DNA from: a virus
Strand: one strand, 5' to 3'
Virus record (IMG/VR): IMGVR_UViG_3300044981_000078
Span: 1 to 64,000 of that record
Length of the DNA stretch: 64,000 bases
Below, piece by piece: positions 9,959 through 63,768 of the stretch. The translations under genes were made by a program, and so were the position numbers. The notes below the pieces were generated by a model. It searched no databases. It was not told the origin of the DNA and saw nothing but the letters and a program-made list of their open reading frames with translations. Every line of letters begins with the position of its first letter. Position 1 is the stretch's first letter.

Positions 9959-10162
9959 CTATTGTTGGTCGTGATCTCTCTGTGCCGGTGAAAATGCGTG
10001 TCCAGTAATAGCGCCCAACACTGTTGCAGTAAATGCCACGAATGTGGGGTCCATGTGGTGAAACCACTGAAGGACAGCACCTGTGCCAAATACTCCAACA
10101 CACACTGGAAGGTGATAATCTTTTACAGCCGACAACCACTTGTCTACAGTATTAAATGACAT
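9959..10162 (-). CDS. Small two-TM membrane protein (holin-like)
   Basis: Two hydrophobic segments. Confidence 0.4.
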   Translation of the reverse strand: MSFNTVDKWLSAVKDYHLPVCVGVFGTGAVLQWFHHMDPTFVAFTATVLGAITGHAFSPAQRDHDQQ

Positions 10163-10613
10163 CAAATTTCTCCACATACGCATGGGCGTCCAACAAGCAC
10201 TGCAAATTGCGCTTTTCGAAAAACCCTAAACCAGCGTTGTGTCCACTGCACAGAATTCCACGAACTTTTCCCGAGACATGAGAGTGGTCGATTGGCGAAT
10301 ATAAATCAACTGTCGCTTCACAGTGAGAAAAAGCACATTTAAAATTTTGTTCGATAAGCATCGCGTCATGCTGCTCAGTTGTTAAACCGTACTTCCTCTT
10401 AACCCAACTATGTCGTACTCGATCTCGATTTCTTCTATTCCACTCAGAAACCAAACGACGATGACGATCCGGATTCTTTCTAACCCAATTATCTTTAAAT
10501 TTTTGTACTCTATCGGGGTGCGCTTCGGCCCAAGCCTTAGCAGCCGCAACTTTCTTCGCTTTGTTTCTCTTATGATACTCACGATCATAAGCAGCTTTAT
10601 CTTCCTTATTCAT
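10152..10613 (-). CDS. Endonuclease VII-like homing endonuclease
   Basis: KYGLT..CAF..IDHSH..VRGILC..HN motif. Confidence 0.85.
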   Translation of the reverse strand: MNKEDKAAYDREYHKRNKAKKVAAAKAWAEAHPDRVQKFKDNWVRKNPDRHRRLVSEWNRRNRDRVRHSWVKRKYGLTTEQHDAMLIEQNFKCAFSHCEATVDLYSPIDHSHVSGKVRGILCSGHNAGLGFFEKRNLQCLLDAHAYVEKFDVI

Positions 10614-17265: not shown

Positions 17266-17339
17266 TGGTCGGGGATGGAAGAATCGGACTTCCGTCTCAC
17301 CCATCCGAAGGGCGTAGATTGCCATTATCAGAATCCCCG
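17266..17339 (-). tRNA. tRNA-Pro(CGG)
   Basis: Cloverleaf, C1-G72, A73, encoded CCA; T-loop UCCGAUU. Confidence 0.75.
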
Positions 17340-17442
17340 TGACACCGCCACTTTCCGCTCGCTAATGACCCCTTGAGCCTTCGGACGATGGGGGACCGTT
17401 GTTCTCGGGAACGATTGCCGCCAATTATTAAAATTGGTAAAC

Positions 17443-17530
17443 TGGTCGGGGTACGGTGACTCGAACACCGAAGGTCTCTCGACACCGGTTTCCAAAACCG
17501 GACTGCTTCCATTTACAGAGCTATACCCCG
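17443..17530 (-). tRNA. tRNA-Pro(TGG), long variable arm
   Basis: CCGGU-UUUGGAA-ACCGG; CCA. Confidence 0.85.
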
Positions 17531-17536
17531 TTAAAC

Positions 17537-17908
17537 TTATTGTCGTGCTGACAAAAGAGTTGTATGATCCATACGCTCACCACCAGACTTTTGTTGCTGC
17601 GGCTTCGTTGGCTCATGCGATTGATCTCCGCCATATTCGTCCAATAGACTCGGCGGAAGAATCAAAATTTTTTTACCGTCTGTGCTGTGTCCTGCGTAAA
17701 CCCCGGGCTCTACTCCGGCTGGTGCGGCCACAAAAATCTGTGTGCCATCGGGAACGACTAGTGGTACTAACGCTCCGGTCGCCGGGTCTGCTACCATAAC
17801 ATGCGGTATTACTACAGATCGTACTCCGACTTTCTTTCCGACAAAGAAACAACTGACAGCGACAGTCAATCCGAGAACAAAAGCCAACGTTGAAGTAATT
17901 ACGCTCAT
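17537..17908 (-). CDS. Hypothetical membrane-anchored protein
   Basis: GGAG SD; N-terminal TM helix. Confidence 0.5.
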   Translation of the reverse strand: MSVITSTLAFVLGLTVAVSCFFVGKKVGVRSVVIPHVMVADPATGALVPLVVPDGTQIFVAAPAGVEPGVYAGHSTDGKKILILPPSLLDEYGGDQSHEPTKPQQQKSGGERMDHTTLLSARQ

Positions 17909-17988
17909 AAATCTCCCGGGACAGAGCACAATTATCGTCGCTCAAGTTCGCTGCGGTGAACTTAATCCTCTGCTCGACGTTACAAACT

Positions 17989-18063
17989 TGGATGCGCGAA
18001 CTGGATTCGAACCAGTATAAACAGGGTCAGGGCCTGTTGGACTGCCAATTGTCCGATCACGCA
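17989..18063 (-). tRNA. tRNA-Gln(CTG)
   Basis: ACAGG-CCCUGAC-CCUGU (C33); CCA. Confidence 0.85.
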
Positions 18064-18071
18064 ATTGAAAC

Positions 18072-18148
18072 TGGTTGGCCTCGAAGGATTCAAACCTTCA
18101 GTCGCATCGGTTCAAAGCCGAGCATGTTATCAATTACACCAGAGGCCA
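18072..18148 (-). tRNA. tRNA-Gln(TTG)
   Basis: Loop CUUUGAA; A19-U56. Confidence 0.85.
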
Positions 18149-18154
18149 ATAAAT

Positions 18155-18228
18155 TGGAGAGCCGGGTGAGAGTCTAACTCACCAAAGCGGGTTTGCAATC
18201 CGCCGCCTAGACGATTGGCTTCCGACTC
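18155..18228 (-). tRNA. tRNA-Cys(GCA)
   Basis: Loop UUGCAAA; U73; U19-A56. Confidence 0.85.
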
Positions 18229-18280
18229 AATAAATTGACGCAGGGACCAAGAGTTAACATTGAAATCCCTGCATAGAAAA

Positions 18281-18365
18281 TGGAGGAAGATAACGTATCG
18301 AAACGTAAGCCTCTCGGCTTGGCTGGTGTTCAAGGCCAGTTGAGCGCCCTTGCTCCCTATCTTCC
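18281..18365 (-). tRNA. tRNA-Ser(TGA), atypical acceptor/T arms
   Basis: Loop CUUGAAC; long variable arm; possible 8/4 fold. Confidence 0.7.
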
Positions 18366-18369
18366 ATAA

Positions 18370-18459
18370 TGGCGGAGGATACAGGATTTGAACCTGTACA
18401 AGCTTACGCTTGGCTTCCGCTTAGCAAGCGGACACAATACCGGGTTCTGTCAACCCTCC
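18370..18459 (-). tRNA. tRNA-Ser(GCT)
   Basis: UCCGC-UUGCUAA-GCGGA; long variable arm; G73. Confidence 0.9.
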
Positions 18460-18860
18460 AAATACTTTATAGCACTTTGCATGAATGCTAGATTATCTTC
18501 AAACGATCCTATCCCTCGGTTACAAGAACTACAAAGCAAGCCACGCACTTTTTTAGTTGAGTGACAATGATCTATAACCAGCTTTTTATCTCGTTGGCAA
18601 ATTGCACATAAGCCGTGCTGCCGTTCCTGCATCTGTTTATATTGTTCTTCCGTTATCTTATATTTTCGAGTGTAGTCTTTTACGTAATTATAAGGGCCTT
18701 GCCGTGCTTTAATGGCCTCTTTATTATTCTGGTATCTTACAGCTTCGTATTTTGACCTACAATCCTTACACTGCGGGTGTCTTCTATCTCTTCCCTTCGT
18801 GTGATAATCAAAACGCTCAATGTCTTTCTCAATGCCGCACTTAGAACACAATTTCATCAT
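18450..18860 (-). CDS. Endonuclease VII-like homing endonuclease
   Basis: CSKC..CKDC N-terminus; CAIC..IDHCH..VRGLLCSSCN. Confidence 0.85.
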   Translation of the reverse strand: MMKLCSKCGIEKDIERFDYHTKGRDRRHPQCKDCRSKYEAVRYQNNKEAIKARQGPYNYVKDYTRKYKITEEQYKQMQERQHGLCAICQRDKKLVIDHCHSTKKVRGLLCSSCNRGIGSFEDNLAFMQSAIKYLEG

Positions 18861-18862
18861 AA

Positions 18863-18910
18863 CACTCTCCCTTAAAGAGTGCCGGGAGGTGTTAAGGGCA
18901 CCTCCCGACT
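18863..18910 (-). promoter_or_regulatory. Kissing-loop SD-sequestering element, copy E
   Basis: GGGAGGUG-[CCCUUAA]-CACCUCCC ... CACUCU-[UUAAGGG]-AGAGUG, then AUG. Confidence 0.8.
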
Positions 18911-18927
18911 AATTGTACGTACAAACC

Positions 18928-19134
18928 TTATTGGTTCAATGCCTGTTTAGCTTTTTGAACCATATCTCCCTTGGCCTTCAGTTCATCACCAAGCGAAGGG
19001 GCCTTGCGTGCTTCTCGCGCCGCGCTATATGTCGGTTTCTGTGGCTGCGGCATACTCGGACTAGGAAACTTCTGTTCTGCCTCTCCGAGTACCTTCTTAG
19101 CGTTTGCTAAGGTTGTTTCAATATCTTGCGGCAT
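18928..19134 (-). CDS. Hypothetical protein
   Basis: 68-aa ORF directly after the RNase P RNA. Confidence 0.45.
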   Translation of the reverse strand: MPQDIETTLANAKKVLGEAEQKFPSPSMPQPQKPTYSAAREARKAPSLGDELKAKGDMVQKAKQALNQ

Positions 19135-19144
19135 AATTTTCGAT

Positions 19145-19444
19145 GGTGAACTTGTAAGCAGGATTCTGTTCCGTGCGTTCTTATAGAAGCACGGTGACTG
19201 CCATTCGTCTTTGCTGCCTACCCGACCTTCATCACGCTAAACAAACGTTCCGGTCCTATTTGGCATTGCTCTGGTGTGGATTATCTTCGCTCCAATGATG
19301 TAAGCGTTCGATGACTTTCTAGAATGTCACCGTTCAATTACATACGAAGGCTTACCCGTACGCTTTCGCGCCCCGCAACTTCCACGGCACCATGTTTAGA
19401 TGAGTCCTGACTTTCCTCTGTTTCCAGCGGCAGTCTAGTTCACC
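19145..19444 (-). ncRNA. rnpB: RNase P RNA (bacterial type)
   Basis: P1 GGUGAAC/GUUCACC; CR-I GAGGAAAGUCAGGAC; CR-V AACAGAAUCCUGCUUA; P2 GACUGCC/GGCAGUC; GAGCAA..CCAAAUAGG (P15 region). Confidence 0.88.
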
Positions 19445-19448
19445 AATA

Positions 19449-19525
19449 TGGACTCGCTGGCGGGACTCGAACCCGCATACATCAGTTTAGGAAACTAAGC
19501 CCCGATCCTTTCGAGGAACAGCGAG
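19449..19525 (-). tRNA. tRNA-Arg(CCT)
   Basis: Loop UUCCUAA; A20; CCA. Confidence 0.88.
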
Positions 19526-19609
19526 AAAATTTTTATCCCTTCAGGTGCGCGACCGGAGTCCGGTGCGTTTTAGTTTCGAGAGTTTCACTCTACCCCTTCG
19601 GGATAAAAC

Positions 19610-19684
19610 TGGGGGGCCGTAACGGAGTCCAACCGTTCTCTTGGAGTTAGAAGCTCCAGGTCCTATGCGATGAACGAACAGCCC
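19610..19684 (-). tRNA. tRNA-Arg(TCT)
   Basis: UGGAG-CUUCUAA-CUCCA; C19-G56. Confidence 0.85.
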
Positions 19685-19690
19685 AAAACT

Positions 19691-19765
19691 TGGCGAGAGA
19701 TGATGGATTCGAACCACCAAAAGCGCGTTTGGAGTGCGCCGGTTTGCCGTTAAGCCTAATCTCTC
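19691..19765 (-). tRNA. tRNA-Trp(CCA)
   Basis: Loop CUCCAAA; G73. Confidence 0.88.
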
Positions 19766-19772
19766 ATAAAAC

Positions 19773-19848
19773 TGGAGCGGAACATGGGATTCGAACCCAC
19801 TCGTTCAGTTTGGAAAACTGACATGCTAGCCGTTAACATCAGTCCCGC
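19773..19848 (-). tRNA. tRNA-Gly(TCC)
   Basis: Loop UUUCCAA; U73. Confidence 0.9.
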
Positions 19849-20060
19849 TTAAAATCCATAAATCCACAACTCATGATCCAGAATCGGACGAAACACATGC
19901 TTATCGCCAGGTGTCCACAGATACAATCCTAACTCAGTGGACATGATAATAAAAGCAGATTCTGAATGCACGTACATATAAATTTGTGGCACCCACCTCA
20001 CGGTCCCGGTGCCCCGGACTAGGTATTGAGGGCAACCCTCGTGCGCCTAGACGCTGTGAT

Positions 20061-20135
20061 TGGAGCGATGTGCGGGAAATCGAACCCGCGCCTATGACTT
20101 GGCAAGCCATCGGACTTCCATTATCCGAACATCGC
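20061..20135 (-). tRNA. tRNA-Gly(GCC)
   Basis: Loop UUGCCAA; U73. Confidence 0.88.
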
Positions 20136-20528
20136 CTAAAATTCAAAGTCTTTAGCAAAACGTAATCCGGTTTTTATGCTCTTAGAAGGCTCTATACGTA
20201 ATGACATTGTGCCTTTAACACACTTCTCTATAGGAACAAAATATGTCTTTCCATTGTCGGGGCAATAAACTCCGAAAGCGTCTATATCGTCTTTCGAATA
20301 ATAATTCATACCTGCTGCTGTCACACTATAAGTTCTAAATTTTACCACACCTTTTCTAATTCGTGCAGTCTTACATTGAACACGTATGAATTTTCCCTTC
20401 TCATCATCTAATAAAAGGTCATATCGAGAAGCACCGTTAAAAGGTATAAAAATTTTCTTACCCCTCAGCAGTAGCGCCGCTAAAATCATTCCTTCTGTAA
20501 CAGAACCTACTCCACTCGTATCTTTCAT
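20136..20528 (-). CDS. PD-(D/E)XK homing endonuclease (I-Ssp6803I-like)
   Basis: RYDLLLD..RVQCKT..Y..DIDAFGVYCP; likely start ATG 20528. Confidence 0.85.
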   Translation of the reverse strand: MKDTSGVGSVTEGMILAALLLRGKKIFIPFNGASRYDLLLDDEKGKFIRVQCKTARIRKGVVKFRTYSVTAAGMNYYSKDDIDAFGVYCPDNGKTYFVPIEKCVKGTMSLRIEPSKSIKTGLRFAKDFEF

Positions 20529-20532
20529 TTGT

Positions 20533-20574
20533 CTCTCCACTATAGAGTCGGAGGGGTGATAGTGGCACCCCTCC
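20533..20574 (-). promoter_or_regulatory. Kissing-loop SD-sequestering element, copy F
   Basis: GGAGGGGUG-[CCACUAU]-CACCCCUCC ... CUCU-[AUAGUGG]-AGAG, then AUG. Confidence 0.8.
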
Positions 20575-20595
20575 CAGTTGTACGTACAAAATCAA

Positions 20596-21072
20596 TTAGG
20601 CGTGATCGCCTTTGTCACCCTTGTCGCCTTTAGGTCCGGGGTCTCCACGGTCGCCTTTGTCGCCCTTTATAGAGTCACCTTTATCGCCCTTATCACCTTT
20701 GTCACCTTTTACAGAATCACCTTTATCGCCTTTAGGTCCTATTACGGTATCACCTTTATCGCCCTTAATAGAATCGCCTTTATCACCCTTTAGGCCGTGC
20801 TCTCCGTTAGTTCCTGGATCGCCCTTATCACCCTTCACAGAGTCGCCTTTGTCACCCTTAATTCCTGGAATTCCAATATCGCCGCGATCCCCCTTCGGGC
20901 CTGCGGGTCCTGTTATAGATTTACCGTCGGCTCCGTTTTTTCCAGGGGCTCCTTGAGGTCCTACCGGTCCCGCCGGACCTGCTACCGGCGCTGTCTTAAA
21001 CAGACTGTGAACTAACGCAATAACTCCGGATGCCAACCCTGCTACAGCAATATAATCCGCGTATGGAATCAT
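20596..21072 (-). CDS. Membrane-anchored collagen-like protein
   Basis: N-terminal TM helix, then G-X-Y (GDK) repeats. Confidence 0.8.
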
Positions 21073-21124
21073 CTTAGTCCCCTCAGAACTAAAACTAACA
21101 TGTGGTACAGTACTACCTCAAATG

Positions 21125-21201
21125 TGGTCGCTGTGAGTGGAATCAAACCACTTATGATGACGCTTTATGAGAGCGTTGTTCACTCGGAGAACATCACAGC
21201 G
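21125..21201 (-). tRNA. tRNA-Met/Ile2(CAT)
   Basis: ACGCU-CUCAUAA-AGCGU; A19-U56. Confidence 0.8.
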
Positions 21202-21208
21202 TTAAAAT

Positions 21209-21284
21209 TGGTTGCGGGTCTAAGAGTCGCACTTAGCTGAAATCAGTTTATGAGGCTGATGACTTCCTCGAAGTCTAACCCGCG
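21209..21284 (-). tRNA. tRNA-Met(CAT), initiator-like C1:A72 mismatch
   Basis: CGCGGGU...ACCCGCA-A-CCA; loop CUCAUAA. Confidence 0.75.
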
Positions 21285-21402
21285 ATAGAAATTTTATATT
21301 CTACGTTTCTTATTCCGAACGTAGGTAACTGAGAATGACAATTAGGACATGTAATTGCTAAATTCTCTTCTCGATTATCCCAAAACTTGCCATTCTTATG
21401 AT
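21275..21402 (-). pseudogene. C-terminal HNH endonuclease remnant
   Basis: HKNGKFWDNREENLAITCPNCHSQLPTF; N-terminus missing. Confidence 0.7.
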
Positions 21403-21416
21403 TGTACGTACAAAAA

Positions 21417-21494
21417 TGGTGGGTCTGGTGAGAGTCGAACTCACAAATTCTCCGGTCTAAACGGAGCACATATGCCATATTCTGTTACAGACCC
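21417..21494 (-). tRNA. tRNA-Leu(TAG), short variable region
   Basis: CUCCG-UUUAGAC-CGGAG; A73. Confidence 0.8.
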
Positions 21495-21499
21495 AAACT

Positions 21500-21575
21500 T
21501 GGCGGGGTTACCGGGAATCGAACCCGGATAGTGAGATTGAAAGTCTCACGAATTGACCGCTTATTCGATAACCCC
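21500..21575 (-). tRNA. tRNA-Glu(TTC)
   Basis: Loop CUUUCAA. Confidence 0.9.
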
Positions 21576-21682
21576 AAAATTGAATTCGGCCTTAGCAAAA
21601 TTTCTCAGTTACTTTTGCTTTTTCGCAACCCTCGGAGACTAGGAACTGAGATGGTCTCGACAAGGTGAAGCCGACCGAAACT

Positions 21683-21756
21683 TGGTAGCCCTGAACGGAA
21701 TCTAACCGTTGCTTTTCCCGTGAGAGGGGAATGACCTGACACTAATCGACAGGGCC
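21683..21756 (-). tRNA. tRNA-Glu(CTC)
   Basis: Loop CUCUCAC; U19-A56. Confidence 0.85.
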
Positions 21757-21763
21757 ATTAAAC

Positions 21764-21839
21764 TGGCGGCGTTGACGAGAATCGAACTCGCACCTTCGTT
21801 CGTGACAGGAACGCGCACTCACCGTTATGCTACAACGCC
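21764..21839 (-). tRNA. tRNA-Asp(GTC)
   Basis: Loop CUGUCAC; G73. Confidence 0.9.
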
Positions 21840-21901
21840 ATAAATTTTTGCCCTGACTAGTGGTAGCTAGCCGCCGATGTGGGACCACATCGTTATAACA
21901 C

Positions 21902-21976
21902 TGGAGCCGAAACCAGGAATCCAACCTGGGATTACTCATTACCAATGAGTCGTCTTAAGCACTAGACTATATCGGC
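21902..21976 (-). tRNA. tRNA-Thr(GGT)
   Basis: Loop UUGGUAA; C19-G56. Confidence 0.85.
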
Positions 21977-21982
21977 AAAACT

Positions 21983-22056
21983 TGGAGCAGCGTCTGAGAA
22001 TCTAACTCAGGTCAACGCATTACGAGTGCGTGATAATCACACTATACCAACGCTGC
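21983..22056 (-). tRNA. tRNA-Thr(CGT)
   Basis: Loop CUCGUAA; U19-A56. Confidence 0.85.
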
Positions 22057-22060
22057 AAAC

Positions 22061-23095
22061 TTACGCCGTTGCCTTTCGGCTCTTATCTCGGCGGAATATC
22101 AAATAATCAGAGTGACCGTCCCAATCTAAAACTACTGTGTCACCTGTCTTGACCTGTTCGGTTGACAGCAATCGTGACATCGGACGGACTACATACTTCT
22201 CAATCGTTCTCTTCAGGTGACGAGCGCCGTAGTTTATATCTGTGCCCTCACGAAGCAAAAACTTCTTAGCCGACTCGTGAGTACTGAAAAGAAACTGGGC
22301 CTTGTCATTATGCAAAATTCTATTCTGAACGATCTCTAGTTCGATATCCAGTATACGATAGAGATGCTCAGATGTCAAGGGATGAAATACCACCACCTTG
22401 TCCAGCCGGTTCATAAACTCAGGAGAAAACTTTCTCTTTGCTGCTTCCTGAGCTATCCTATCAATCTTGTTGTCTAACTGAGTCTCGATTTGAGGTTGCG
22501 AAAACCCCATTGAACCGTTAAACAAACTAGTAATATCTTTGGCCCCGAGATTAGAGGTCAAGAATATCATTGTCAGAGACAGATCAACTCTACGGTTGTC
22601 TCCGAGTGTCAAGGTCGCCTTGTCAAGCATACCAAGTAATAGCTGCCACAGAGAGTCTGACGCTTTCTCAATTTCATCGAATAATAGAAAGCTCAGTCTA
22701 AGACCTTCTTTGTGATATGTCGCCAACGCTTCCTGGGTTATCTTCGGGTGTGTTTCCCGATGACCTAGATATCCCGGAGGTGAACCGATTAACTTTGCTA
22801 TCTCGTGACTGTGTTGAAACTCAGCACAGTCTATCTTAATGGCTGCACGCGGGTCACCAAATAAAACTTCCGCTGTCGCTTCAACTACTCTGGTCTTGCC
22901 AATTCCTGTCGGCCCAAGAAATAAAAAGTTACTTATCGGACGACCGGCGGGGCACAGCCCTGCCCGAAACATTTCAAAGGAGTCTACGATAGCCTCAACC
23001 GCATCTTGCTGGCCGATTATCTTCTCTTCTAAAGAAGACTGAAAACCGATCAGTTCTCGGCTCTTACGGGTCGGGTCCAAATCTGACATAGTCAT
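22061..23095 (-). CDS. Single-ring ClpA/ClpB-family AAA+ ATPase (D2 module only)
   Basis: IIGQ..GPTGIGKT, KLIGSPPGYLG, LFDEIEKA, FSPEFMNRLD, YGARHLKR. Confidence 0.9.
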   Translation of the reverse strand: MTMSDLDPTRKSRELIGFQSSLEEKIIGQQDAVEAIVDSFEMFRAGLCPAGRPISNFLFLGPTGIGKTRVVEATAEVLFGDPRAAIKIDCAEFQHSHEIAKLIGSPPGYLGHRETHPKITQEALATYHKEGLRLSFLLFDEIEKASDSLWQLLLGMLDKATLTLGDNRRVDLSLTMIFLTSNLGAKDITSLFNGSMGFSQPQIETQLDNKIDRIAQEAAKRKFSPEFMNRLDKVVVFHPLTSEHLYRILDIELEIVQNRILHNDKAQFLFSTHESAKKFLLREGTDINYGARHLKRTIEKYVVRPMSRLLSTEQVKTGDTVVLDWDGHSDYLIFRRDKSRKATA

Positions 23096-23121
23096 AGAAC
23101 CCCCGAACAACTGTAACAAAC

Positions 23122-23196
23122 TGGAGCACGATAAAGGTTTCGAACCTTTTCCCGCTGTTTACAAGACAGCAGTTCTACCAATTAAACTAATCGTGC
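23122..23196 (-). tRNA. tRNA-Thr(TGT)
   Basis: Loop CUUGUAA. Confidence 0.9.
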
Positions 23197-23199
23197 ATA

Positions 23200-23280
23200 G
23201 CGAGGAATCAAGCGACCTAGGGTATGGGCTTGCGCCCGCTCTATTTACAGTAGAAGTATCCCAGGTCTAACGTCACTCGC
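23200..23280 (-). ncRNA. Orphan Y RNA-like ncRNA
   Basis: GCGAGUGACGUUAGA..GGGAUACUUCU..UCGCUUGAU..CUCGC aligns end to end with the RNA at 57988-58073 upstream of Ro60. Confidence 0.75.
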
Positions 23281-23285
23281 GAAAC

Positions 23286-23372
23286 TGGCTGGGGCGGTAG
23301 GCATCGAACCTACAGGTGTCTTGCGACTCTCGGGTAACAGCCGAGTGGGTTTACCAATTCCCCTACGCCCCA
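23286..23372 (-). tRNA. tRNA-Asn(GTT), long variable arm
   Basis: CUCGG-CUGUUAC-CCGAG; G73. Confidence 0.85.
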
Positions 23373-23482
23373 ATATTTAAAATGTTTACCCGGCTATCAC
23401 GGGTACCGCTTGGGTTCCACTTGCGACCTACCCACAACTGGTAGCCGCCTTTTGTTGTGTTACGCTTCGCACTATAACATAC

Positions 23483-23557
23483 TGGAAGGCAACCGGGGAA
23501 TCCAACCCCGACTTTCGCGTTCGAAGCGCGATGTCTTGTGCATTCGACTAGTCGCCC
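23483..23557 (-). tRNA. tRNA-Arg(TCG)
   Basis: Loop CUUCGAA; C19-G56; A20. Confidence 0.85.
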
Positions 23558-23564
23558 ATAAATC

Positions 23565-23640
23565 TGGAGGGCCGTAAGAGAATCGAACTCTTTTCTCGAC
23601 GTTCGTAGCGTCGTGTCCTATTCCGGTGAACGAACAGCCC
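23565..23640 (-). tRNA. tRNA-Arg(ACG)
   Basis: Loop CUACGAA. Confidence 0.88.
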
Positions 23641-23649
23641 ATTAAAACT

Positions 23650-23725
23650 TGGTAGCCAACTTCGGACTCGAACCGAAAACCCCTTGTTTGTAGGACAAGT
23701 GCTCTTGCCATTGAGCTAGTCGGCT
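23650..23725 (-). tRNA. tRNA-Val(TAC)
   Basis: Loop CCUACAA (C33). Confidence 0.88.
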
Positions 23726-23912
23726 AAACTTTTGCGGGACGGTGGAGCTTCGCTCACTTCGCCGGACTGATTACCACACATAGCCATCGTTTACCGATGC
23801 TGACGCCCGCATTAATAGTCTGGGTGCCCGGGGATTCTCACCCCGCCGTCACGACAGTACTGACTAGTCTTCCTGCCGGACTGGTAACGAATTACCGCGT
23901 ACCCGTAAAACT

Positions 23913-23986
23913 TGGTGGACCGTACATGAATCGAACATGCACCGCTTCCTTGCAAGGGAAACAGACTCCCGTTATCCTAACGGCCC
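23913..23986 (-). tRNA. tRNA-Ala(TGC)
   Basis: G3:U70; UGC anticodon. Confidence 0.9.
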
Positions 23987-24179
23987 AAAATTACTTCTTA
24001 TGAAAAACTGTCTTATACAAACTGTAATTAAACTTATATTCAGCGAATGATGTTGCTAATCCGGCACCGAACAGAACTGCTAGTACCGCTACTGCTTTCA
24101 GAATTAGCATACTGTCCCCTTGAAATATTCGCGGCCTGTTCCCAGAACTAGTCAACCGTATCGAACGGCGAGGCGAAAT

Positions 24180-24255
24180 TGGTTGTGGTCACAGGAATCG
24201 AACCTGTTGCCTCTCGCCTATCAAGCGAGCGCCCATCCTTATGTGCTTGACCACA
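24180..24255 (-). tRNA. tRNA-Ile(GAT)
   Basis: CUCGC-UUGAUAG-GCGAG. Confidence 0.85.
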
Positions 24256-24374
24256 ATAAAACTTTTCTTCAAGAAGCCACCGTGCCAATGCACCAATACT
24301 ATTCGGTTGCTTCGCGAGTTTTTCTAGCTCTTATTTTGTACAGAGCTTTTGTGATGGTTCATAACTCATAAAAC

Positions 24375-24464
24375 TGGAGGAGTAGGCTGGATTCGAACCA
24401 GCAGTGTTCGCAAGGAACTCCGCTTTTACAGAGCGGTGGGATTACCGGATATCCCGTCTACTCC
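24375..24464 (-). tRNA. tRNA-Tyr(GTA)
   Basis: Loop CUGUAAA; long variable arm. Confidence 0.88.
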
Positions 24465-24470
24465 AAAACT

Positions 24471-24546
24471 TGGTAGGTCCGGTGGGAGTCCAACCCACAA
24501 CGTTTCGATTAAAAGTCGAGTGCTCTGGCAATTGAGCTACGAACCT
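24471..24546 (-). tRNA. tRNA-Lys(TTT)
   Basis: Loop CUUUUAA; C19-G56. Confidence 0.88.
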
Positions 24547-24551
24547 AAATA

Positions 24552-24627
24552 TGGTGACTCCGGTGGAAGTCCAATCCACAACCTATCGGGTAAGAGCCGA
24601 GTGCTCTGGCAATTGAGCTACGAAGTC
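24552..24627 (-). tRNA. tRNA-Lys(CTT)
   Basis: Loop CUCUUAC; C19-G56. Confidence 0.85.
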
Positions 24628-24633
24628 AAAACT

Positions 24634-24725
24634 TGGTCCGCTAGACTGGATTCGAACCAGTATGCCGTTTTATAGCGGCGGAGGGTTTTAAGTCCTCAGT
24701 GTCTCGCCTGTTCCACCACTAGCGG
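24634..24725 (-). tRNA. tRNA-Leu(TAA)
   Basis: Loop CUUAAAA; long variable arm. Confidence 0.88.
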
Positions 24726-24732
24726 ATAAAAT

Positions 24733-24826
24733 TGGTATTCCCGAGAGGACTCGAACCTCTATCTTGCTGGAATCCCCAGCGACCAAGGTATAAGCTTGGG
24801 GCTCTAACCAATTGAGCTACGGGAAT
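24733..24826 (-). tRNA. tRNA-Ile(TAT), long variable arm
   Basis: CCAAG-CUUAUAC-CUUGG. Confidence 0.85.
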
Positions 24827-24828
24827 AT

Positions 24829-24913
24829 TGGTGCGAAAGAGGGGAGTCCAACCCCTACGGTTTTACCCGGCGGTTTTTGAGACCGCTGCGTCTGGCAATT
24901 CCGCCACTCTCGC
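24829..24913 (-). tRNA. tRNA-Leu(CAA)
   Basis: Loop CUCAAAA; C19-G56. Confidence 0.88.
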
Positions 24914-24984
24914 ATAATATTTGGGACACTTAAGTCCCAGGTTGGTCTTCACTCCCTCGCGGGCGAAGCTTACCAAACCTAAAC

Positions 24985-25058
24985 TGGTCCTGGCTGTCCG
25001 AGTCGGACGGACACGGCTCGTTCTTCAGACGAGAATGCGACCCCTACATCAAACCAGG
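24985..25058 (-). tRNA. tRNA-Phe(GAA)
   Basis: CUCGU-CUGAAGA-ACGAG; T-loop UCCGACU. Confidence 0.8.
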
Positions 25059-25128
25059 ATAATCTTTCGGGCTTTTGTTGGCGGGAGCCCTGCAACCCGA
25101 CTTAGTGACTTTATATTTAACTTTTAAC

Positions 25129-25157
25129 ACTCTAGCACAGTTCTGAAAACCTGTCAA
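25129..25157 (-). promoter_or_regulatory. Sigma70-type promoter pointing into the tRNA array
   Basis: TTGACA-17 nt-TAGAGT with extended TG. Confidence 0.7.
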
Positions 25158-25257
25158 GCTTTTATTTCAAAAATCTTTTGAGGCTTTCATAGTTTGTCGG
25201 TAGCCTCTAACCGGACATCTCCATCCTACTTGGGATAGGACCAGTCGGACGGGAACT

Positions 25258-25333
25258 TGGGGCGAAAGATCAGACTCGAACTGACATTCTCCGATTCACA
25301 GTCGGATGTCCTTACCTTTGGACGACAATCGCC
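25258..25333 (-). tRNA. tRNA-His(GTG)
   Basis: Encoded G-1 and C73; loop CUGUGAA. Confidence 0.88.
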
Positions 25334-29628: not shown

Positions 29629-31165
29629 GGAATTATATAGATAACTCCCGCAAGTAAACAAGGGACTTTAAGTGCCGTGTTTACGTTAAAAATCTTTGCC
29701 CGATTCGCAGAATGTACTTGACTACCTTACGGTAGTTATGTATATTGTGAGCATGGAGGCAGCGCACATGATAAACTCTTTTGCACCTCGGGATGGGAAA
29801 TGCGAAGACTGTGGCGAGACTCGTTCGCTAAAGGATGGCCTGTGCCACGAATGCACGCAGGCTGAGATTGATGCCAGCAATTGCGCAGAGTGCAATCTTA
29901 CCCAGTCCGCTTGTGTCTGCGAAGGCGGCCCTTGGATTCCGGGCGGGTATCGCCTATGAGCCGCTCAACGATCAGCACGTTCAAACTTTTTGAACTGTTC
30001 CCACACGAGCCTTCCGCTCGGAAGTATCTGGAAGGCCGTCTCTGGCCGAATGGCGTTACCTGTCCCGAGTGCAAGTCCAAAGAGCGGATTACGGCGCGCA
30101 AGGATGGCTTTTACCGATGCAACGCCTGCAAACTGGACTTCACGGTGCGAACCAAGACAATTTTCGAGCGTTCGCACGTACCGCTTCACAAGTGGCTGTA
30201 TGCCATGTATTTGCTTGTGACAGCCCGCAAGGGCATCTCTAGCCTACAGTTGGGCAAAGAGATAGGTATTACTCAGAAATCGGCGTGGTTCGTCCTACAC
30301 AGGCTCCGTGAGGCTTGCGGAACTAAATTGGAGTTGCTTCAAGGAACCGTCGAAGTAGATGAGACATTCTTCGGCGGCGAGGAAAACAATCGGCACATGT
30401 ACGACCGCATCCACAAACCAAGGGAACGCACTGAAAAGACTATCGTAGTCGGGATGCGCCAACGCGGAGGGCACACGGTCGCCAAGATCGTACCTAGCAC
30501 TGGCGGGTTAGCCCTTCGCGGCGCGATTCATGAGAATGTTGCGCCTGGTACGCGAATCCTGTCCGATGACTACGGCAGCTATACCGCGCTTCCGAAAGAG
30601 GGCTTCCAGCACGATTCAGTGAAGCATGTTACAGGCGAATACGTGCGTGGCGATGTCCACACGAACGGGATTGAATCGGTTTGGGCTGTTATGAAGCGCG
30701 GGATGCACGGCGTCTACCATCACGCCGACAAGAAGCATATGGGCAGATACGTGAACGAATTTACCTTCCGACTAAACCAAGGCAATGTCTCTCGCCATAC
30801 TACGGAACGGCTGGATAGTTTCGTTGACGCCGTAGCAGGCAAGCGATTGACTTTCTCAAGGCTGACCGCATGAGAAAGGGAAGCAAGCGTTGTACAGGTT
30901 TGGTTTGGCATGAACCTAAAGTCTGTGTACGCGGGTATTGGAGGCAATGCGGAAATGAAGCAACCCATCAAGTCGGAGGAAAATACGGGAGATACTTTTG
31001 CGACAGTTGCAGACCCCGTACAGATTCTCAATCAGACAGCGGATTTAGTGTTGATGTATCGTCCGAAAATAAAAACGAAGGCTGCAAAGCGTAGAGTACG
31101 AAGGAATAAGCGTGCGGCGAAGGATAAGGACAAGCCGAAATCAAGGTAGTCAACTATATAATTCC
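29629..31165 (+). mobile_element. IS1595-family element with passenger ORFs
   Basis: Terminal inverted repeats GGAATTATATAGATAACTCC / GGTAGTCAACTATATAATTCC; A-rich flanks. Confidence 0.85.
29956..30873 (+). CDS. IS1595-family transposase
   Basis: Zn ribbon CPEC..CNAC; VEVDETF, SDD, HTNGIESVW, YVNEFTFR. Confidence 0.92.
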   Translation: MSRSTISTFKLFELFPHEPSARKYLEGRLWPNGVTCPECKSKERITARKDGFYRCNACKLDFTVRTKTIFERSHVPLHKWLYAMYLLVTARKGISSLQLGKEIGITQKSAWFVLHRLREACGTKLELLQGTVEVDETFFGGEENNRHMYDRIHKPRERTEKTIVVGMRQRGGHTVAKIVPSTGGLALRGAIHENVAPGTRILSDDYGSYTALPKEGFQHDSVKHVTGEYVRGDVHTNGIESVWAVMKRGMHGVYHHADKKHMGRYVNEFTFRLNQGNVSRHTTERLDSFVDAVAGKRLTFSRLTA

Positions 31166-58091: not shown

Positions 58092-59495
58092 ATGAAAACA
58101 AATACGAAGACCTTACCGACTCCGAAGTTCACACACGAGGGCGCTCGTGCGTACAATACGACTGCCGAACAGGAACTGCGCCGGTCAGTTATGGCCTGCA
58201 TGCTGTGGGAGGACACCTTCTATGAAGATGGTGTGGATATCGCTGATCGTGTCAGTTCGCTCGTAGCCAAGGTCGCTCCGGAGAAAGTTTCCGAGATCGC
58301 AATCGAGGCCCGGGTCAAGCAGAAGCTGCGTCATGTGCCTCTGTTTCTCGCTGTAGCGATGGCAAAGCTGCCGACTCACAAGCATGTTGTAGCGGATACT
58401 GTCGCTGAGATCATCCAGCGCCCGGACGAGCTTGCAGAGATTCTCGCTATCTATTCTAAGGACCGTACCGGAAGCAAGAAGCTGAACAAGCTGTCAAAGC
58501 AGCTTCAATACGGTATCGCTCGTGCGTTCACAAAGTTCAACGAATACAGCTTGGCAAAGTATAATCAGGACAAGGATGTCAAGCTCCGCGACGTTCTATT
58601 TTTGACTCACCCTACACCGGTAGACGACGCTCAGGCCGATCTGTGGAAGCGACTGATTGATGGAAAGTTGGACACCCCGGACACCTGGGAGGTCGCAATA
58701 TCTGCTGCGAAGGGCAACAAGGACCTGACCCGCGACACCTGGGACCGTCTGTTGAAAGAGGGCAAGCTGGGCGCACTGGCGCTCCTTCGCAATTTGCGAA
58801 ATATGGATGAAGCCGGGGTACACACCGATCTTATCCGTAATTCACTCTTAAACGCCAATACCGAACGCGTACTCCCGTTTCGTTTTGTTGCAGCCGCACA
58901 CGCCGCCCCGAAGTTTGAGGGCGAACTGGACCAATTACTTATCAAAACATCCGAAAAGCTCCCTAAGCTTTCGGGAAAAACTATCCTGATTGTTGACGTT
59001 TCCGGATCGATGTACAGAGCCGGAAATATCAGCAAGCGATCAGATATGACCAGGTTGGAGGCAGCCGGAGCGCTGGCGGCTATCGCTCGCGAGTCTTGTG
59101 AAAGTGTTGCAATCTACGCGACCGCAGGCGACGATTACGCTCGCAAGCATAAGACCGGTCTTGTTCCCGCACGCCGAGGAATGGCGTTAATTGAGAAATT
59201 TACAGCGCGTGGATTCGTTTTAGAGTTAGGCGGAGGGGGAATTTTCTTGAAGCAGGTCCTTGACTATGTCTACGAGAAGGAAAAGACAGCCGACCGAATC
59301 ATTGTATTCACAGACGAACAGGATTGTGACTTGAAGTGCAATCCGGCAACCGCCAACGCTTTCGGAAAGCGTAATTACCTGGTCAACATCTCAAACGAGC
59401 GAAACGGTATCGGCTATAAGCCGAACTGGATTCATATCGATGGGTTCTCGGAGGCTATCCTTCAATACATTGCAGCAACGGAGCAGAATGGTTAA
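58092..59495 (+). CDS. rsr: Ro60/Rsr (TROVE + vWA) RNA-binding protein
   Basis: WEDTFYEDG, QRPDEL, TWEV, ALLRNLRN, DVSGSM, FTDEQ. Confidence 0.92.
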   Translation: MKTNTKTLPTPKFTHEGARAYNTTAEQELRRSVMACMLWEDTFYEDGVDIADRVSSLVAKVAPEKVSEIAIEARVKQKLRHVPLFLAVAMAKLPTHKHVVADTVAEIIQRPDELAEILAIYSKDRTGSKKLNKLSKQLQYGIARAFTKFNEYSLAKYNQDKDVKLRDVLFLTHPTPVDDAQADLWKRLIDGKLDTPDTWEVAISAAKGNKDLTRDTWDRLLKEGKLGALALLRNLRNMDEAGVHTDLIRNSLLNANTERVLPFRFVAAAHAAPKFEGELDQLLIKTSEKLPKLSGKTILIVDVSGSMYRAGNISKRSDMTRLEAAGALAAIARESCESVAIYATAGDDYARKHKTGLVPARRGMALIEKFTARGFVLELGGGGIFLKQVLDYVYEKEKTADRIIVFTDEQDCDLKCNPATANAFGKRNYLVNISNERNGIGYKPNWIHIDGFSEAILQYIAATEQNG

Positions 59496-62620: not shown

Positions 62621-62647
62621 CTAACCCAAATTTGGTAGTATTTGGGT

Positions 62648-63574
62648 ATGAGCAAAAGCACAGTGAGCACCTTCCAACTGTTCGAGAAGTGGCCGACTGA
62701 AGAGTCCGCAAGACTCTACATTGAGAAGCGACTATGGTCGAACGGCCCTGTATGCCCACGCTGTAAGGCTACAGAGCGCATTACGGCCCGCAAAGGCGGC
62801 TTCTACCGTTGTAACCCATGTAAATGGGACTTCACGGTTAGAACAGGCACTATCTTCGGTCGTTCGCACGTCCCGCTGCATAAGTGGTTGTACGCAATGT
62901 ACTTGCTTGTGACTTCGCGGAAGGGAATTTCATCTCTGCAAATGTCTAAAGAAATTGGAGTTAAGCAGCATACCGCGTGGTTCATATTACAGCGGTTGCG
63001 AGAAGCCTGCGGCGCGGAAGTCAAGATGCTTCAAGGGATTGTCGAAGTGGACGAAACCTTTATTACAGGCAAAGAACAGAATCGCCATATGTATGACCGT
63101 ATCCATGACCCCCGAGAGCGATCAGAGAAGGCAATCGTAGTCGGGATGCGAGAACGTGGCGGGAATACCGTTGCGACGGTAGTTCAGAGCACGGGCGGTT
63201 TGGCTCTCCGCGCCGAAATACACAAGCATGTGGTATCAGGCACTAGAGTTATGACCGACGATTACGGCAGTTACACGGCGCTCCCGAGAGAAGGGTTCAA
63301 GCACGAGAGCGTAAAGCATGTCACAGGAGAATATGTCCGTGGCGACGTTCACACTAATTCAATTGAATCAGTATGGGCTGTTCTAAAGCGCGGGGTACAC
63401 GGGACGTTTCACCATGTCAGCAAGAAACACCTGAATCGATATGTTTCCGAGTTTACTTTTCGTCTAAATGACGGTAAGGTTCAGCGCCACACTCTTGATA
63501 GACTCGACAGTCTGATATCCAATGTGGTAGGGAAACGAGTTACATACGAAGAAATAATCTCAGAAAAGTCTTGA
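62648..63574 (+). CDS. IS1595-family transposase, second diverged copy
   Basis: VEVDETF, TDD, HTNSIESVW, YVSEFTFR; visibly homologous to 29956-30873. Confidence 0.92.
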   Translation: MSKSTVSTFQLFEKWPTEESARLYIEKRLWSNGPVCPRCKATERITARKGGFYRCNPCKWDFTVRTGTIFGRSHVPLHKWLYAMYLLVTSRKGISSLQMSKEIGVKQHTAWFILQRLREACGAEVKMLQGIVEVDETFITGKEQNRHMYDRIHDPRERSEKAIVVGMRERGGNTVATVVQSTGGLALRAEIHKHVVSGTRVMTDDYGSYTALPREGFKHESVKHVTGEYVRGDVHTNSIESVWAVLKRGVHGTFHHVSKKHLNRYVSEFTFRLNDGKVQRHTLDRLDSLISNVVGKRVTYEEIISEKS

Positions 63575-63600: not shown

Positions 63601-63692
63601 GTTCTGGTAGCAAGTTGAATGGTGGATTCGTCGCCCACTGCAAATCGACGATAAGGCAGACGTAAAAGAAAGCAAACCCGTCGGCTACATAT

Positions 63693-63768
63693 GCGGAGGT
63701 AGTTTAATGGTAGAACGATCTGTTAACCAACAGGTAGGTGGCGGTTCAAATCCGACCTCTCCGCTCCA
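63693..63768 (+). tRNA. tRNA-Gly-like gene with 8-nt anticodon loop
   Basis: GCGGAGG acceptor, U73-CCA, canonical D-arm, AUCUG-UUAACCAA-CAGGU, bulged T stem. Confidence 0.6.

Follow-up and report, generated by a model that had tools for sequence, protein, structure and literature searches.

Frequent compensated exchange of the 19-56 elbow pair in the tRNA array of a soil phage

The pair G19-C56 at the elbow of transfer RNA (tRNA) is treated as a near-invariant tRNA signature, and the Watson-Crick pairing of position 19 with position 56 is textbook knowledge. Here we analyze this pair in the 35 tRNA genes of a 64,000-nucleotide (nt) stretch of DNA, hereafter the window, which comprises the first 64 kb of the 101,668-bp IMG/VR virus contig IMGVR_UViG_3300044981_000078 (label G000, estimated completeness about 98%). 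The same DNA is contained in soil metagenomes. The flat face of G19-C56 is a contact site for the ribosome, ribonuclease P (RNase P), T-boxes and processing enzymes (PMC4810234, PMC3664808). In bacterial RNase P it is the J11/12-J12/13 module that stacks on the pair, and in mitochondria the tRNAs have lost their elbow platform together with the structures of RNase P and the L1 stalk that dock on it (PMC3664808). The T-loop may also be read by defence systems. CbCash, a Schlafen nuclease associated with type III CRISPR systems, is reported to recognize a UUC motif in the tRNA T-loop and to cleave it between U54 and U55; its authors leave open whether phage tRNAs are targeted (PMC13462974). Two further reports describe phage tRNAs that escape tRNA-cutting defences via sequence changes (PMC10264068, PMC11555353).

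Eleven swapped 19-56 pairs in one tRNA array

The tRNA genes lie together on the minus strand (coordinates are those of the window unless another contig is named):

17266..25332, minus strand: tRNA array of 35 tRNA genes for 20/20 amino acids, from ARAGORN and Rfam

ARAGORN with default settings called 32 minus-strand tRNAs at 17266-25332, and a relaxed threshold added three more, namely Cys (18155-18228), Ser-UGA (18281-18365) and Met (21209-21284), all on the minus strand, to give 35. The Cys tRNA is supported by Rfam, too, with a match at 18158-18228. The D- and T-loops were taken from the ARAGORN structure strings. A non-canonical 19-56 pair is present in 11 of the 35 tRNAs (31%), with G, A or U at position 56, and the base that follows G18 is the Watson-Crick partner of the altered position 56 in 11/11. 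A previous reading of the sequence alone had listed eleven swapped pairs among 35 tRNAs, each altered 56 with its matching 19, and this list was reproduced exactly. The eleven genes are given below, where L126 denotes a strain variant and G001 a related phage, both described further on.

18072..18148, minus strand: tRNA-Gln(UUG), A19-U56; D-loop AAUUGAUA, T-loop UUUGAAU; the L126 allele is canonical
18155..18228, minus strand: tRNA-Cys(GCA), U19-A56; 7-nt D-loop; only Cys tRNA of the array; U73 kept
19610..19684, minus strand: tRNA-Arg(UCU), C19-G56, A20 kept; L126 has an unrelated canonical Arg-UCU allele instead
21125..21201, minus strand: tRNA-Met(CAU), A19-U56; 7-nt D-loop, A8 with U14; identical in L126
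21683..21756, minus strand: tRNA-Glu(CUC), U19-A56; 7-nt D-loop; identical in L126
21902..21976, minus strand: tRNA-Thr(GGU), C19-G56
21983..22056, minus strand: tRNA-Thr(CGU), U19-A56; 7-nt D-loop; U-A in G001 as well
23483..23557, minus strand: tRNA-Arg(UCG), C19-G56, A20 kept
24471..24546, minus strand: tRNA-Lys(UUU), C19-G56; D-loop AAUUGCCA, T-loop UUGGACU; the array has no canonical Lys tRNA
24552..24627, minus strand: tRNA-Lys(CUU), C19-G56; D- and T-loops as in Lys-UUU
24829..24913, minus strand: tRNA-Leu(CAA), C19-G56; long variable arm

The T-loop reads UUGGA with C19-G56, UUAGA with U19-A56 and UUUGA with A19-U56. Since Lys-UUU and Lys-CUU share their D- and T-loops, their swaps probably go back to a single event followed by duplication. 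For Lys and Cys, the swapped tRNAs are the sole supply within the array.

The count depends on the D-loop base being position 19. We rebuilt positions 14-21 from fixed landmarks under all registers that allow 1-3 nt on either side of positions 18-19. The 7-nt D-loop of five swapped tRNAs permits a single register only, and in the remaining six exactly one register puts a G at position 18, so that the assignment made in the sequence-only reading holds in all eleven. Paralogues from the same array share this register (AAUUGG.A versus AAUUGC.A and AAUUGA.A). In both swapped tRNA-Arg, A20 directly follows N19, and since A20 is an identity element for ArgRS, the numbering is fixed independently. 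When partners were moved by 1-2 positions, 0-6 of the 11 paired versus 11/11 observed, and when base 56 was shuffled among the tRNAs, the 31/33 seen in the array was not attained once in 200,000 trials (best shuffle 25). A MAFFT alignment of 27 tRNAs scattered G18 over different columns and was not used for the pair counts; hence, the register, slid-partner and shuffle controls were made in Python instead. In the swapped tRNAs of this soil-phage lineage, the pairing is constrained and the identity of the bases is free.

The swapped genes look like working tRNAs as judged from their sequences. ARAGORN yields cloverleaf structures for 11/11, and encoded CCA is found at the 3′ end of all 35 array tRNAs. 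With D-loops of 7-11 nt, T-loops of 7 nt and the pair kept, they do not resemble the elbow-less mitochondrial type; the invariant G19 and C56 of the RF00005 type are absent from 11/35, all of which retain a Watson-Crick pair. Among the T-loops of the array, U54, A58 and a purine at 57 (R57) are each present in 33/33 and G53-C61 in 32/33, whereas C56 is found in 22/33 and U55 in 30/33. The conservation of the former alongside variation of C56 and U55 argues for a change targeted at the elbow contacts rather than general decay. The anticodon loops have U33 in 33/35 and a purine at position 37 in 35/35. The description of these tRNAs as preserved in shape and changed in sequence is thereby borne out, as position 19 always supplies a partner, U54, A58, G53-C61, R57, CCA and identity elements are kept, and swaps persist in diverged orthologues. 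Three soil RNA libraries contain short contigs on the RNase P RNA described below (19156-19438, 19178-19382), on some tRNAs and on some open reading frames (ORFs) at a depth of 2-7; these were not counted as evidence of transcription, since they end at differing positions and may stem from carried-over DNA. The Rfam gathering score is passed by nine of the eleven swapped tRNAs, Arg-UCU and Met 21125 being called by ARAGORN only; across the array the Rfam gathering threshold misses 8/35 and default ARAGORN three. The practical consequence is that tRNAs of the swapped type score low in standard detectors.

For comparison, we used the tRNAs of two very large phages found via the ClpB-like gene (G002, 300 kb, and G003, 456 kb), a T5-like coliphage, two uncultured megaphages, Stenotrophomonas phage CM1, Xanthomonas phage Xoo-sp13 and some further loci. 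Compensated swaps occur in 2/237 tRNAs of these other phages versus 11/35 in the window (Fisher p = 2e-9), with one swap among the 108 tRNAs of G002 and G003 together and one among the 23 tRNAs of the T5-like Escherichia phage vB_EcoS_HASG4, whose tRNA-Ile(GAU) carries A19-U56. A survey of 19-56 identity across phage arrays had been proposed along with the list; in the other phages sampled here, swaps are rare. A Bdellovibrionales metagenome-assembled genome (MAG) is canonical in 36/36 tRNAs. The swapped tRNAs of the window hence differ at C56 from the 36 tRNAs of this candidate lineage and from 235/237 tRNAs of other phages. Isolated 19-56 swaps thus already exist in cultured phages. Our literature search found no paper on frequent 19-56 swaps in tRNA sets or on phage RNase P RNA, and the elbow is not mentioned in PMC8421152, a paper on L-arrays.

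Related phages, allele exchange and further elbow contacts

Phage G001 (110.8 kb, with terminal repeats) carries swapped pairs in 10 of its 32 tRNAs, partly in other isoacceptors and with other pairs. The arrays of further relatives were found by scanning metagenome contigs with the lineage's variant of the RNase P RNA segment CR-I, which returned 51 stretches, among them nine tRNA arrays with an RNase P RNA and two RNase P RNAs without detected tRNAs; the others look like chance matches. The same scan of IMG/VR gave only G001 and two chance matches inside coding sequence. Swapped tRNAs were found in four of the metagenomic arrays (L116, 2/16; L120, 2/7; L122, 1/5; L139, 4/29) and none in the others examined (L149, 0/10; L110, 0/28; L107 and L142 together, 0/12). 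Within the sub-clade of G000, G001, L116, L120, L122, L139 and L149, 30/134 tRNAs are swapped, all 30 are compensated, and an uncompensated non-C56 tRNA does not occur. The swaps comprise 12 A-U, 11 C-G and 7 U-A pairs. As the three alternatives arise at similar rates, the common trait of the swapped alleles is the loss of C56 and no particular replacement pair.

Individual isoacceptors illustrate this. Thr-GGU has C-G in the window, U-A in G001 and L116, A-U in L139 and the canonical pair in L149, and Thr-UGU has C-G in both G001 and L139 despite an overall identity of 77%, which together indicate that the swapped state is recurrent and stably inherited. At about 70% identity, same-anticodon tRNAs of G000 and G001 are as far apart as unrelated ones; since orthology could not be established between the two, the swaps cannot be polarized on a tree. 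Thr, Arg and Lys tRNAs are enriched for swaps (19/51 versus 11/123, p = 3e-5), a set picked post hoc and therefore a hint only, with p = 0.064 in a global permutation within arrays.

L126 shares about 4 kb with the window (17863-21935) in blocks that are 94-100% identical, except for one of 86%. Its Asp, Glu-CUC, Met 21125, Gly-UCC, Trp, Arg-CCU and Cys tRNAs are identical or nearly so, and Cys(GCA), at 96% identity, has the same swap. The other L126 tRNAs are same-anticodon alleles without a close counterpart in the window, the best matches being 66-73% identical. Arg-UCU and Gln-UUG belong to this second group, with a swapped pair in the window and the canonical one in L126, and the replaced segments end at the neighbouring genes. 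By sequence, this looks like a gene-by-gene cassette exchange of tRNA alleles between near-identical strains. A few ORFs and the gene for the RNase P RNA lie between the tRNA genes of the array; the ORFs encode two free-standing endonucleases (EndoVII and PD-(D/E)XK types), a collagen-like protein and a ClpB/ClpX-like AAA ATPase.

18450-18860, 20136-20540 and 10152-10613, minus strand: EndoVII-type and PD-(D/E)XK_5 free-standing endonuclease genes, within or beside the array

Such EndoVII and PD-(D/E)XK nucleases are of types typical of homing endonucleases and might possibly drive the cassette exchange. SegB in the tRNA region of T4 is a comparable driver.

The elbow of this array also varies at position 55:

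21209..21284, minus strand: initiator-like tRNA-Met, C1 opposite A72; A18 with G55, T-loop UGCGACU; G19-C56 kept
17266..17339, minus strand: tRNA-Pro(CGG), C55; T-loop UCCGAUU, D-loop GG kept
24985..25058, minus strand: tRNA-Phe(GAA), C55; T-loop UCCGACU, D-loop GG kept

T-loops with G55 (UGC...) are accompanied by A18 (D-loop AG instead of GG) in 8/9 cases of the clade, and G001 has four G55 tRNAs, three of them with A18. When the variants at 56 and 55 are combined, UUC is missing from 14/33 tRNAs with a 7-nt T-loop and kept in 19/33. Besides the window's Met 21209, A18 with G55 was seen in tRNAs of L001, L084 and L139, and also in the tRNA-Cys of Xanthomonas phage Xoo-sp13 (L105); C55 with a D-loop GG recurs in G001, L116, L126, L139 and L149. 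In two window tRNAs (Tyr, 24375-24464, and Met, 21125-21201, both minus strand) the usual U8-A14 contact is inverted to A8 with U14, and in several a pyrimidine at 15 is combined with a purine at 48.

The RNase P RNA of the array and the phage genome

The RNA gene that interrupts the array encodes an RNase P RNA:

19139..19446, minus strand: phage RNase P RNA, bacterial type A, 308 nt (Rfam RF00010, cmscan 102.6 bits versus a cut-off of 100, full-length model alignment)

Its core is present (P1-P4, CR-I, CR-IV, CR-V, L15 GGU), and P18 is absent. Where the J11/12-J12/13 double T-loop dock (CR-II, CR-III) normally lies, the RNA has 71 nt that do not align, in place of 97 positions of the model. 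This reduced form, a P10/11-P12 stub with a conserved UCAUUCRAG stretch, is common to G000, G001, L116, L120, L122 and L139. The motifs ACAGAAA and GGGUGAAA are present in G002 and G003 and absent from G000 and G001; G002 has a full type A RNA (376 nt, 255 bits), and G003 keeps CR-II and CR-III. The RNase P RNAs of L110 and L107/L142 lack any specificity domain. RNase P RNA genes were seen inside the phage tRNA arrays of the window, L083, L081, L082, L116, L120, L122, L139, L110, L107 and L142, and range in size from 376 nt (G002) down to 242-275 nt. Frequent swaps were seen only together with the remodelled RNase P RNA, an association that may reflect shared descent. Since L110 and L107/L142 lack a specificity domain yet have 0/40 swaps, losing the dock does not by itself suffice. 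A search of G000-G003 for RnpA came back empty, so the phage RNA probably teams up with the protein of the host.

Among 185,579 species genomes, the CR-I variant GAGGAAAGUCAGGACUC occurs in an RNase P-like context only in two Bdellovibrionota MAGs (L176, L177), and in the soil contig L121, which carries TrpRS and an ankyrin-repeat gene, it belongs to a full-length RNase P RNA. This motif is a weak lead towards Bdellovibrionota as a possible donor or host lineage.

Domain scans of G000 identified an SU10-type portal, terminase, DNA polymerase A, Prim-Pol, ThyX, class II ribonucleotide reductase, UvrD helicase, a Ro60 (TROVE) protein, GroES, NAMPT and an integrase; the integrase-family gene occupies G000 70534-71457. 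The array had no Megablast match among 50,697 phage records, and no CCA-adding enzyme was found in G000 or G001. The Ro60 gene is located at 58092-59495 (plus strand), and a weak YrlA-like Y RNA match lies inside the tRNA array of L110 (L110 485-553), so that Ro60/Y RNA parts seem to travel with such tRNA arrays. Two IS1595-family transposase genes are found at 29881-30873 and 62642-63574 (plus strand), the second of which adjoins a tRNA-like gene with an 8-nt anticodon loop (63692-63764, plus strand). Beyond the window lie a NAMPT gene (G000 73559-75040, plus strand; L212 9559-11040) and, 3′ of it, a PRPP-synthetase-like gene with a weak, sub-threshold Pfam match (G000 75305-76174, plus strand; L212 11305-12174). 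Phages use NAD-rebuilding gene pairs against NAD-depleting defences, and these two genes could be such a pair.

Several array tRNAs have unusual outlines. Pro-UGG, Asn-GUU and Ile-UAU (17443-17530, 23286-23372 and 24733-24826, minus strand; 88, 87 and 94 nt) have long stem-loop variable arms, and Leu-UAG (21417-21494, minus strand) has a short variable loop at 78 nt, in contrast to Leu-UAA and Leu-CAA. A tRNA-Ile with the anticodon UAU is uncommon among bacteria. The T-loop of Ser-UGA has 6 nt. In two soil RNA libraries, contigs join tRNA-Ile(GAU) to tRNA-Tyr, with six other letters in place of the 117-nt spacer 24253-24371, which shows that a variant array without this spacer exists.

Readings of the swapped pairs and comparison with known systems

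The reading that we place first, tentatively and short of an even chance, is that the swaps are an escape from host factors that read the UUC of the T-loop. A swap would remove the C of this UUC (T-psi-C) signature and keep the L-shape. Host enzymes that recognize the T-loop by its sequence would then act poorly on tRNAs without UUC, with T-loop-cutting defence nucleases of the Schlafen/Cash type as the main candidates and TruB- and TrmA-type enzymes as secondary ones, and part of the phage tRNA supply would survive an attack on tRNAs. The changes at position 55 (A18-G55, or C55) would act likewise. Escape is suggested by the lineage-specific excess (11/35 here and 10/32 in G001 versus 2/237) and by full compensation, the targeted nature of the change, the use of all three replacement pairs and the signs of function. 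It is further suggested by the different non-canonical pairs that one isoacceptor may carry in different phages, by the persistence of the swapped state in orthologues of no more than 77% identity, and by the coexistence of swapped and canonical alleles in one phage population, as would be expected at an arms-race locus.

Several points weigh against escape. Only 11/35 tRNAs are swapped, or 14/33 with the position-55 variants. For several amino acids every tRNA of the array retains UUC, and translation would thus still be halted by a broad T-loop nuclease. Between near-identical strains, alleles of one anticodon with and without the swap can stand in for each other, which fits neutrality too. 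Other tertiary contacts vary with compensation (A8-U14 in two tRNAs, A18-G55), which suggests generally fast compensated evolution and not a specific target, and the Thr/Arg/Lys bias fails the global permutation (p = 0.064). No host nuclease is tied to the phage, and the text of PMC13462974 consulted here describes U54 and U55 mutants only, with no effect of C56 found there. The sequence-only reading had seen selection rather than decay at work and had proposed evasion of host defences. Selection is upheld for the pairing by its full compensation, whereas selection for the disguise itself would be a further, hypothetical step; evasion is plausible, given a Schlafen nuclease that cuts at UUC (PMC13462974), but only a third of the tRNAs are changed and alleles are interchangeable between strains.

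Neutral compensated drift would explain the same pattern if nothing reads the identity of 19-56, so that exchanged, fast-evolving tRNAs wander among the four Watson-Crick options without benefit. We regard this as a real possibility, and the two readings are close to each other. Drift accounts for the partial coverage (11/35), for canonical and swapped alleles being interchangeable in near-identical strains, for the very fast turnover that leaves same-anticodon G000 and G001 tRNAs about 70% identical, and for compensated variants at other tertiary contacts. Similar rates for the three pairs are what drift would produce if a G-U intermediate had no advantage over other mismatches, and the amino acids do not differ significantly in their share of swaps (p = 0.064). 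However, other phages, including tRNA-rich ones and G002 and G003, swap at about 1% (2/237), so that a lineage-specific relaxation has to be assumed; G53-C61, U54 and A58 stay fixed under the same turnover; and the C-G and U-A swaps need two transversions without a paired intermediate, yet make up 18/30.

Co-evolution with the phage RNase P is unlikely in our view. On this reading, once the elbow dock was lost, elbow identity would be irrelevant for 5′ processing, or else be matched to a remodelled dock. A recognizable J11/12-J12/13 module is missing wherever swaps are frequent (G000, G001, L116, L120, L122, L139), the phages that keep CR-II and CR-III (G002, G003) have 1/108 swaps, mitochondria provide a precedent of joint loss (PMC3664808), and in the absence of a phage RnpA the RNA probably acts with the host protein. 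On the other hand, the arrays without a specificity domain (L110, L107/L142) have 0/40 swaps. The contact of the canonical dock with the pair is a stacking on its flat face (PMC3664808, PMC4810234); this dock is not known to read the identity of the bases and may never have fixed G-C. The association may moreover stem from shared descent in one or two independent lineages, and host ribosomes must still accept the swapped tRNAs. An equally unlikely combination of this idea with escape would be a partly private tRNA system, in which the remodelled RNase P RNA, with UCAUUCRAG for the dock, would mature tRNAs with any elbow, and a changing subset of these would be hidden from T-loop readers (nucleases, TruB/TrmA); the elbow pair would then serve as a self/non-self mark that is diversified by homing-endonuclease cassette exchange.

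Two further explanations appear very improbable. A phage factor might attack host tRNAs via the canonical elbow or T-loop and spare the swapped phage tRNAs, as had also been proposed from the sequence alone; the complete phage tRNA set could replace host tRNAs, and several ORFs in or near the array have no recognizable domain, but the 24/35 phage tRNAs that keep the host-like G19-C56 and the 19/33 that keep UUC would be hit as well, and Pfam scans of 70 ORFs recognized no tRNA nuclease (no anticodon-nuclease, Schlafen, HEPN or colicin-like domain), so that this proposal finds no backing. Nor do we expect the swaps to be a feature of host tRNAs that the phage has copied: in Bdellovibrionota, the only cellular lineage found with the CR-I variant, the genome checked is canonical in 36/36 tRNAs, the link consists of a 17-nt motif only, and canonical and swapped tRNAs are mixed within one phage array. 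Decaying or non-functional tRNA genes, to which low-scoring or odd members might point (the 6-nt T-loop of Ser-UGA, the 8/35 missed at the Rfam gathering threshold), can practically be dismissed given the compensation in 11/11, the intact cloverleaves, CCA and identity elements, the supply of Lys and Cys from swapped genes only and the identical or conserved swapped alleles in relatives.

A complete natural set in which a third of the tRNAs carry other Watson-Crick pairs indicates that the identity of 19-56 can be dispensable in vivo, and its matched natural alleles, which share anticodon and phage background and differ in being swapped or canonical, offer a means of testing what normally fixes G-C. 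If escape is the correct reading and the swaps protect against T-loop-cutting nucleases, they would represent a new class of phage counter-defence and would answer the question left open in the Cash paper.

With the canonical bacterial and phage elbow (G18-psi55, G19-C56, T54-A58; RF00005; PMC4810234), the window tRNAs share the cloverleaf, a 7-nt T-loop with U54-A58, G53-C61, R57, G18 and the closure of the elbow by a Watson-Crick pair of 19 with 56. They differ in that the canonical 19-56 pair is G-C in about 99%, whereas 31% of the window set have C-G, U-A or A-U and hence UUG, UUA or UUU instead of UUC. Phage vB_EcoS_HASG4 displays the same type of compensated change, but in 1/23 tRNAs as opposed to 11/35 here. 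The elbow-less tRNAs of mitochondria (PMC3664808) resemble this locus in that a deviant elbow stands alongside an RNase P RNA without the J11/12-J12/13 module; here, however, the D- and T-loops are of full size, the pair is kept with new bases and the ribosome is that of the host. The motif of CbCash, as given in PMC13462974, covers exactly the positions U54, U55 and C56 in which the changes of this array lie, while no such nuclease is linked to the host of this phage. A further parallel are the defence-escaping phage tRNAs, i.e. the anticodon-loop variants of PMC10264068 and the T5 tRNAs active against retron and other systems of PMC11555353. In these reports the escape has been tested and concerns the anticodon loop of specific isoacceptors, whereas we infer it for the elbow and T-loop of many; what they would have in common with the tRNAs analyzed here is a function that is kept while the sequence is altered where a nuclease would read it, in lytic-type phages with large tRNA sets.

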